Origin: Candidatus Woesearchaeota archaeon
GTDB taxonomy: Archaea; Nanobdellota; Nanobdellia; Woesearchaeales; ARS49
Direction: 5' to 3'
DNA length: 63,692 nt
NCBI GenBank assembly: GCA_038868995.1
Contig: JAWCRZ010000006.1
Span: forward strand, 1-63,692
In this document: positions 3,300 to 3,413 of the stretch, one piece after another
How positions within the stretch are numbered: position 1 is the stretch's first letter
How the letters are laid out: every line of letters begins with the position of its first letter
Translations under genes and position numbers: made by a program
Notes under the pieces: generated by a model
Told to the model about the DNA's origin: nothing
Seen by the model: the letters and a program-made list of their open reading frames with translations, nothing else
Database searches by the model: none

Positions 3300-3413
3300 T
3301 TAATGGTGCGGGCAGCTCTGCCTCGGCTTTGCCGAGGTCATTTTTATCTCTGCCAGTTGTGGAGGAGAGAAAAATGAGTCCAGAGCGGCCAGCACCAGAA
3401 ACTTGACTTAACC
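3300..3413 (-). repeat. Structured intergenic repeat, copy 1 (divergent; internal module inverted)
   Basis: Shares flanks ttaatggtgc...ggccagcaccaga...ttgacttaacc with 9182-9310 and 63465-63593; its interior aligns to their reverse complement. Confidence 0.8.

Follow-up and report, generated by a model that had tools for sequence, protein, structure and literature searches.

Can the interior of a small repeated element be turned around while its outer arms stay in place? The question is raised by an element at positions 3300–3413 of a contig from a Candidatus Woesearchaeota archaeon (JAWCRZ010000006.1, assembly GCA_038868995.1). An earlier reading made from the letters alone (the sequence-only reading) described it as a copy of two further elements on the contig whose interior had been inverted. 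We refer to the three as copy 1 (3300–3413), copy 2 (9180–9310) and copy 3 (63463–63593); these and all other coordinates given without a contig name are those of the window, that is, the whole stretch of 63,692 nucleotides that was analysed. The window is contig C6 of a genome of 940,371 bp in 20 contigs (G000), which is 98.55% complete by markers and whose small size suggests a DPANN-like archaeon, and both an archaeal signal recognition particle RNA and an archaeal RNase P RNA were found in the window. Our results make it likely that copy 1 is an immobilised, truncated copy of a miniature inverted-repeat transposable element (MITE), and that the two subfamilies of this MITE, T1 and T2, differ by an inherited flip of the core that was mediated by inverted arms in a master copy and then amplified, rather than by a regulated switch.

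Orientation of the core in the window and in the genome

The outer arms of the three copies run in parallel, in agreement with the sequence-only reading. Positions 3381–3413 form a 91% direct repeat with 9278–9310, and GCGGCCAGCACCAGA occurs exactly at 3385, 9282 and 63565, on the + strand in all three. The interiors were compared by global alignment on both strands. Against copy 2, the interior of copy 1 scored 62 when reverse-complemented and 33 when aligned forward; against copy 3 the scores were 69 and 32. Shuffled interiors had a mean score of 9.0 and a maximum of 24. Strand calls with a covariance model of the core, which also served for genome searches, gave copy 1 59.1 bits on the + strand and 28.7 on the − strand, whereas copies 2 and 3 scored 103.4 and 102.1 bits on the − strand and 39.9 and 39.7 on the + strand. 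The order of the hairpins is hpB–hpA in copy 1 and hpA–hpB in copies 2 and 3, the GTC..GAC linker lies on opposite sides (it precedes hpA in copies 2 and 3), and the hpA loop of the copies agrees in the flipped register only. These data confirm that the interior of copy 1 is the reverse complement of the other two.

BLAST located 81 loci of the family on the 20 contigs of the genome, and local alignment around these loci delimited 70 complete elements. Copy 1 is outside this set because its 5′ repeat is truncated, and about ten further loci that are partial, degenerate or at contig ends are outside it as well. Both orientations occur among the complete elements: 54 have the T1 arrangement (core +), 15 the T2 arrangement (core −) and one is T1-flavoured but flipped. 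Copy 1 has the T1 arrangement, and copies 2 and 3 that of T2. Copy 1 had been taken for the odd one of the three, but it instead represents the majority.

As the stems of the hairpins are self-complementary, any reverse-complement match will include a trivial component. An artefact could therefore take two forms, an interior that matches the forward strand equally well or a T2 arrangement produced by misassembly. However, in 778 of the 780 pairs formed by 52 T1 and 15 T2 interiors, the reverse complement outscored the forward alignment (means 65.2 versus 30.4), and both hairpin order and linker side differ between copy 1 and copies 2 and 3. As for misassembly, the 15 complete T2 copies share their arrangement at separate loci, and 12 of the 15 have duplications of their own that are identical or have one mismatch. 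The artefact is refuted, and we give it next to no probability.

T1 copies have a mean pairwise identity of 0.83 and T2 copies one of 0.92; T1 is the older, majority subfamily and T2 the younger one. In a tree built from cores turned to a common orientation, T2 forms one clade (99/99), and T1 forms another together with the flipped copy (98/97). The cores of the two clades differ along their whole length, and the mean interior score between the subfamilies, taken as reverse complement, is 65, compared with 108–135 within each. Both subfamilies carry target-site duplications and show the same promoter-side bias (see below), so transposition is independent of core orientation. Orientation is an inherited subfamily trait, and not a demonstrated switch of the locus.

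The single flipped copy, C3:74637–74757, is sister to the T1 copy at C15:1332 (99/94). Its terminal repeats match those of C15:1332 in the forward direction (21/22 and 19/22), whereas for the interior the reverse complement scores 97 and the forward alignment 25. It is thus kin of C15:1332 with an inverted interior, and at least one independent flip therefore occurred inside T1. The idea that the inner cassette flips holds in part. The core is indeed flanked by inverted arms and has been turned round on more than one occasion (in T2, in C3:74637–74757 and in a related family, X), but orientation is fixed per subfamily, and the part of the idea that concerned flipping at a locus was not supported. 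Family X has about eight copies in G000 (C17:5411–5566, C2:7826–7967, C4:49203–49331, C20:8547–8675 and others); its repeats are related to those of the main family, its core sequence differs and its core is − by the polarity of the ends.

Terminal repeats and the origin of the flip

The elements are non-coding and dispersed, make up about 1% of the genome and are 124–142 nt long when complete. They end in 22-nt terminal inverted repeats, GGTGCTGTCAACTTAATGGTGC at the 5′ end and GCACCAGA(AAC/GAG)TTGACTTAACC at the 3′ end (repeat sequence GGTGCTGTCAAC…), and the terminal-repeat stems are 90.9–93.5% paired in 55 copies. Directly outside the repeats are 9-bp direct repeats of varied sequence. In 51 of the 70 complete elements these 9-bp flanks match with at most one mismatch (30 of them perfectly), compared with none of 70 in a displaced control. 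The family is a MITE. Like other prokaryotic MITEs, such as the Correia elements of Neisseria and the SM MITEs of Sulfolobus, it is small and non-coding, has terminal inverted repeats, makes duplications of fixed length, is scattered between genes in many copies, folds back strongly and has subfamilies that stem from successive master copies. It differs from them in its conserved four-way-junction interior, which is also found in repeat-less copies and in MITEs with other repeats, in having subfamilies set apart by a flip of the interior, and in its fixed distance to TATA boxes.

The terminal-repeat pattern has 73 occurrences in G000 and a single one among 14 congeners. Three contig ends (C3:1–93, C4:77811–77908 and C19:11686–11774) fall inside copies of the MITE, so the repeat breaks the assembly. 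In one T1 copy, C5:40400–40537, the 5′ repeat GTCAACTCTCTGGTGC is the exact reverse complement of the inner part of the T2 3′ repeat; the two ends, or the two subfamilies, may have recombined or undergone template switching with each other. A further family in G000, Y, has about five copies (including C3:16486–16660, C9:3975–4121, C4:54786–54929 and C14:13759–13873) with the same kind of core, a 7-bp hpC, 8-bp duplications and repeats (GGCTGTATTGAAAGG…) that look IS6/IS26-like.

The 5′ end of the MITE resembles the inverted repeat of the insertion sequence (IS) IS1A of Escherichia coli (NC_000913, 19796–20563), with 16 of 19 bases aligning with GCTGYCAACTTAMTGRT. Its score of 10 compares with a null of 3.2 ± 1.4 and was reached by 1 of 2000 shuffles. 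The 9-bp duplication of the MITE agrees with the IS1 value (8–9 bp), reportedly 9 bp in ISfinder and in Siguier (2015). The first bases of the 5′ end, GGTGCTG, fit GGnnnTG, which PMC6807381 states as a feature of IS1 and IS6 ends. Among 201 genomes of the order, 4 have IS1 transposases.

The T1 core lies between the two arms of an uninterrupted 16-bp inverted repeat, GGTGCTGGCCGCTCTG/CAGAGCGGCCAGCACC, made up of the stem P1 and the inner repeat. We propose that the segment between these long inverted arms was inverted in a transposition-competent master copy, either by replication template switching or by intramolecular recombination between the arms. The flipped master copy would have multiplied afterwards, because the transposase needs the terminal repeats only. 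An inversion between the arms leaves arms and junctions intact, and this matches the core/repeat junction common to T1 and T2. The T1 arrangement is probably the ancestral one, because all three copies with IS1-like repeats in a genome from another family of the order (G111; 3 of the 13 copies listed) have the core in + orientation. One of these three, L160, has a 9-bp duplication and a TATA box at the spacing seen in G000. At the E-value threshold used, the core search gave 65 matches in G111 over both strands. The same inversion process would have recurred in one T1 copy and, on a smaller scale, in the hpA loop, and the flip is therefore best seen as a fixed inherited rearrangement and not as a regulated switch.

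The smaller inversions can be seen directly in hpA. Among cores of the same orientation, four pairs of hpA loops consist of a sequence and its exact reverse complement: TTGCCTGCGCA and TGCGCAGGCAA, TTGCAAGGCGT and ACGCCTTGCAA, TTGCCTGTGCA and TGCACAGGCAA, and TCGCATCTGCAAGA and TCTTGCAGATGCGA. Loop-inverted loci in congeners include L119:622–709, L159 (G007:C141:2715–2805), L146 (G004:C65:2786–2875) and L111 (G007:C170:1698–1785). The hpA loop thus flips recurrently, which fits inverted-repeat-mediated inversion such as template switching during replication. Chloroplast hairpin inversions are another case of hairpin-mediated minute inversions. The template-switch mutations of Monttinen and Loytynoja (2022; PMC8794818) lead to loop inversions and to multi-base compensatory changes. 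Reversal of a segment bounded by inverted repeats, with compensatory changes in the stem, is common to those mutations and to our elements, and the hpA loop shows it directly. The core flip differs in that it covers about 85 nt with whole hairpins, lies inside a mobile element and would later have been amplified by transposition.

Alternatively, different core lineages could have come to lie, in one orientation or the other, inside the same pair of terminal repeats, without any inversion in place. Such capture or exchange of cassettes could proceed by gene conversion or double crossover via the P1 arms, which together form an inverted repeat, or could consist of two captures made independently. 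Material for it exists, as repeat-less cores are abundant in congeners (83 in G004, 77 in G007 and 23 in G012), the same core lies inside other MITE families (X and Y in G000, and others in other families of the order), and T2-like stem variants (CCTCGAC, TGAC) also occur in congener cores. A chimera at C14:13778–13900 in G000 joins a Y-type core straight to an IS1-like 3′ repeat (…GGCACCAGAAACCTGACTTAACC), and the core tree, in which T1, T2 and congener cores form a polytomy, is compatible with capture. However, the junction GCGGCCAGCACCAGA common to T1 and T2 points to one origin of the composite, and C3:74637 is clearly an inverted T1 core and not a foreign one. In addition, the T2 hpA loop agrees with T1 in the flipped register and the stem variants are homoplastic within T1. 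We consider capture unlikely.

A recombinase that flips the core at single loci, in the manner of phase-variable invertons, and so alters the promoter output of the neighbouring gene would also give two orientations. Like the invertible promoter switches fimS, hin and other invertons, the core is bounded by inverted repeats, lies close to promoters (14 bp) and is present both ways round in the genome. Unlike in those switches, the two orientations of the MITE are diverged lineages, as seen in the low interior scores between subfamilies. Orientation follows subfamily in separate clades, does not vary among otherwise identical copies, and is reversed in only 1 of 55 T1-flavoured copies. Logan contigs from three runs of one study also had no strand-changing joints over 2950–3750, which is weak evidence since such contigs break at the repeat and drop minor variants. 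An active switch is very improbable. We found nothing in the literature on flipped MITE subfamilies or on this four-way-junction core, although the supplementary tables of PMC11602168 might list the element.

The weakness of the contig evidence is one of several points that count against our preferred reading of an inherited, arm-mediated flip in an IS1-like MITE. Because of the polytomy of T1, T2 and congener cores, the derivation of T2 from T1 by a flip is inferred, and an exchange of cores is possible. The abundant congener cores are without the MITE terminal repeats, and covariation within T1 alone is weak (25 double-changed cells versus 11.5 expected). With regard to IS1, the host is an archaeon and the 3′ end of the MITE is unlike IS1 ends: its GGTTAAG does not fit GGnnnTG, and its IS1-likeness score was reached by 793–1924 of 2000 shuffles. 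There was no match over the cut-off in the G000 assembly to PF03400 (IS1), PF13610 (IS6/IS240) or PF01609 (IS4/5), so at this level the assembly is without an IS1 transposase. A scan for the repeat that allowed up to 6 errors gave no convincing end in nine stored loci of the four IS1-positive genomes, and no autonomous partner with the MITE ends was found in G000, in the nine loci of the order or in public contig collections. Assemblies often lose IS copies. The repeat had no exact match in metagenome contigs (scanned with the 3′ repeat), genome contigs or viral contigs, collections from which the window's own record may be missing. Lastly, the gene context of the MITE copies comes from crude open reading frame (ORF) calls.

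The four-way-junction core

The flipped unit is a self-contained four-way junction of about 90 nt with the arms P1, hpB, hpA and hpC (GTC-N-GAC). The core folds into this junction on either strand, and the folds of copies 1–3 are strong on both strands (z −6.0 to −8.8). RNAalifold on the raw MAFFT alignment gave fragments of structure only because of indels, and the helices were therefore specified by hand. Covariation across genomes was measured on 37 cores from T1, T2 and six congeners. In this alignment 90.8% of cells pair, and 16 of the 28 pairs are changed on both sides; shuffles gave 8.9, and 1 of 500 reached the observed number. The covariation score of 0.222 was reached by none of 500 shuffles, which scored 0.098, and slid controls scored 0.039–0.153. 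Columns 12/94 in P1 hold UA (15), GC (8) and CG (3), columns 21/28 in hpB hold GC (18) and AU (17), and columns 35/78 and 37/76 in hpA hold several pair types; the three compensatory pairs first noticed among the window copies are therefore real. Selection is not the sole reading of these changes. The structure is conserved with covariation across genomes, but template switching can yield compensatory changes mutationally, as PMC8794818 describes.

The core was found in 10 of 15 genomes of the genus, including G000 and one unpublished genome (G009), and in 7 of 150 sampled genomes of the order, including G000 and another unpublished genome (G155), or in 6 of the 149 others. In other families of the order the core sequences are quite different, with the same junction and zero unpaired junction nucleotides. 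Congener cores lie between a stop codon and the Shine–Dalgarno motif and start codon (ATG) of the gene that follows; counted by eye, about 17 of 32 are in sense and about 8 in antisense orientation. At loci L109–L159 of G004 and G007, repeat-less cores fill short spacers that lead from a stop codon to GGAGG or GAGG and an ATG, and these small archaeal genomes appear to use Shine–Dalgarno motifs inside operons. The congener cores are similar to REP/BIME and ERIC-type repeats in their stable fold and their position in short spacers between genes of the same strand; they differ in being a four-way junction and not a simple hairpin, and in their archaeal host.

No Rfam 15 family matched at the gathering score at the three window copies, the best sub-threshold result being a microRNA model with E = 0.29. 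A hammerhead-like junction was considered and rejected, as the zero unpaired junction nucleotides leave nothing to hold a conserved core. A 14-codon ORF with GGAGG in T1 (…AAAAATGAGTCC…) was also rejected, because its ATG is absent from T2 and from congeners.

The core may itself be a functional structured nucleic acid, with the transposon ends as a mere vehicle and the flip tolerated as the function is symmetric. It could act as an RNA, such as a cloverleaf-like processing or stability signal between genes, or as a bidirectional oligo-T terminator or insulator. The covariation across the G000 subfamilies and congeners supports this idea, as do the same junction in quite different sequences in the 6 other genomes of the order, the position of congener cores ahead of the next gene and the ability of both strands to fold. 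Runs of at least four T on both strands were found in 68 of 70 G000 interiors but in only 24 of 43 congener cores. By contrast, runs of at least five T on both strands occur in only 39 of 70 and 7 of 43, respectively. The weak covariation within T1, the lack of an Rfam match and the absence of G-U strand bias (158 versus 166 in T1 and 38 versus 23 in T2) also speak against such a function, and palindromes can be kept paired by template switching without selection (PMC8794818). A function of the core is possible, though we consider it less likely than not.

The sequence-only reading had preferred a role of the element at the DNA level over a strand-specific RNA. This preference was borne out. 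The promoter-side bias follows the repeats in both subfamilies, and the core therefore faces neighbouring genes oppositely in T1 and T2. The element is a transposon derivative whose core is tolerated both ways relative to these genes and is without G-U strand bias, so that a DNA-level reading fits better than a strand-specific RNA. Judging from the sequence of the interiors, a role of the core as a bidirectional terminator is possible. More doubtful is a wider proposal, that the core is an undescribed functional module of the order, carried by MITEs of at least two transposase classes (one IS1-like with 9-bp duplications, the other with 8-bp duplications) and also present as free repeats, and acting symmetrically as a bidirectional terminator or insulator or as RNA punctuation between closely packed genes. 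If the function were symmetric, flips would be tolerated. The IS1-like vehicle would recognise the promoter, that is, the transcription factor B (TFB) recognition element (BRE) and TATA box, perhaps bound by TATA-binding protein and TFB, and insert 14 bp from the TATA box.

Insertion beside TATA boxes and the copy 1 locus

Insertions of the MITE lie at a fixed 14 bp from TATA boxes, on the upstream edge of the BRE. In the direction of the element, the 5′ flank has TTTATAAA at −22 to −15, TT at −12/−11 and C at −9, where the duplication begins; read on the other strand, this flank is a BRE-like GNAA followed by a TATA box. Of the 70 complete elements, 45 have a TATA-like octamer (up to 2 mismatches) at exactly this offset on the 5′ side and 15 have one at the 3′ mirror position (both in 2, neither in 12), against a background of 0.7% per position. 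Octamers with up to 1 mismatch start at −22 in 30 cases, and at any other offset in 5 cases at most. In 29 elements, 50 nt or more of non-ORF DNA is to spare on the 3′ side and the nearest 5′ ORF is 40 nt or more away; 24 of these keep the exact offset, so lack of space is not the explanation. TATA boxes are on the 5′ versus the 3′ side in a ratio of 35:12 in T1 and 10:3 in T2; the orientation bias at promoters follows the terminal repeats and not the core. According to the crude ORF calls, the start codon of the gene reading away from the element is 44–46 nt from the 5′ end in 20 of 70 elements. Nine of the 70 copies provide the stop codon of a neighbouring ORF. The TATA offset is seen in the window at 3283–3304, 9158–9179 and 63441–63462. 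We found no report in the literature of insertion directed to promoters (BRE/TATA) in archaea.

Copy 1 lies between two ORFs on the − strand, a NAD-dependent epimerase/dehydratase (3408–4328; ORF call and Pfam match) and a UDP-glucose/GDP-mannose dehydrogenase (1986–3260; ATG at 3260–3258, Pfam match). The TATA box of the dehydrogenase promoter, assigned from its sequence, the flank profile and the offset histogram, is at 3283–3290 on the − strand (TATAAATA on the +) at the standard offset of the family, and the dehydrogenase ATG follows 22 nt further on. On the left, the 9-bp target-site duplication TGATTTAAT at 3296–3304 is at the consensus position relative to the TATA box and is identical to the right one at 3414–3422. 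The boundaries first given, 3300–3413, therefore hold at the right end only, since the element proper starts at 3305. Alignment with the 54 T1 copies shows that GGTGC at 3305–3309 is what remains of the 22-nt 5′ terminal repeat. Fold and pair counts place the following parts next, all on the + strand: the 5′ arm of P1 (GGGCAGCTCTG, 3310–3320), hpB (CCTCGGC-TTT-GCCGAGG, 3321–3337), hpA (3338–3377), rich in T on its 5′ arm and in A on its 3′ arm, and the 3′ arm of P1 (CAGAGCGGCCA, 3381–3391). From the alignments, GTC at 3378–3380 is the remnant of hpC (GTC-N-GAC), which is deleted in copy 1. The 3′ terminal repeat on the + strand is GCACCAGAAACTTGACTTAACC (3392–3413).

Copy 1 has lost the 17 leading nucleotides of its 5′ repeat, which would leave it unable to move. 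The deleted stretch lay between two TTAATGGTGC direct repeats, and the end of the duplication together with the start of the remnant (TTAAT-GGTGC) repeats positions 13–22 of the terminal repeat. The deletion probably arose by slippage between the two TTAATGGTGC direct repeats. On the other side, the epimerase ORF crosses the right duplication and ends at a TAA in the 3′ repeat (GGT TAA; TTA at 3408–3410 on the + strand). Before the insertion, its stop codon would have been the TAA at 3295–3293, two bases from the TATA box. The exact left-flank pattern of this locus was not matched in metagenome contigs, a collection that may not hold the window's own record, and no alleles were found in this way.

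Copies 2 and 3 are complete T2 copies on the + strand with the core flipped. Copy 2 (9180–9310) is flanked by duplications CTTATTTTT at 9171–9179 and 9311–9319 and consists of the 5′ repeat (9180–9201), P1 (9202–9208), hpC/linker (9209–9217), hpA (9218–9260), hpB (9261–9277), P1 (9278–9288) and the 3′ repeat (9289–9310). Copy 3 (63463–63593), with duplications TTGAGAAAC at 63454–63462 and 63594–63602, is upstream of the TATA box (63441–63448) of a tRNA gene on the − strand (63303–63415). The tRNA matches at 63303–63415 and 46318–46431 are 113–114 nt long and therefore probably contain introns. A 5S rRNA gene (4379–4491) stands alone beside the sugar-nucleotide genes, with no other rRNA in the window.

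MITEs in small archaeal genomes are known from census work only, in terms of their density, which PMC11602168 gives as high in DPANN and Woesearchaea genomes. Three points go beyond this. Flips at two scales, of the hpA loop and of the whole core, are found in one family in which one flipped form seems to have multiplied, and the family is a clean natural record of inverted-repeat-mediated inversion with "compensatory" by-products. The core is shared across the order by MITEs whose ends differ and by repeat-less copies, with strong covariation, which suggests that the structure matters in itself. Insertion is precise, at a fixed distance from the TATA box, with a bias set by the terminal repeats. 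In practical terms, the MITE repeats break assemblies and alter gene ends, as in the epimerase ORF that stops inside copy 1. Together, these results lead us to judge the four-way-junction cargo and the targeting of promoter edges as more interesting than the flip itself.

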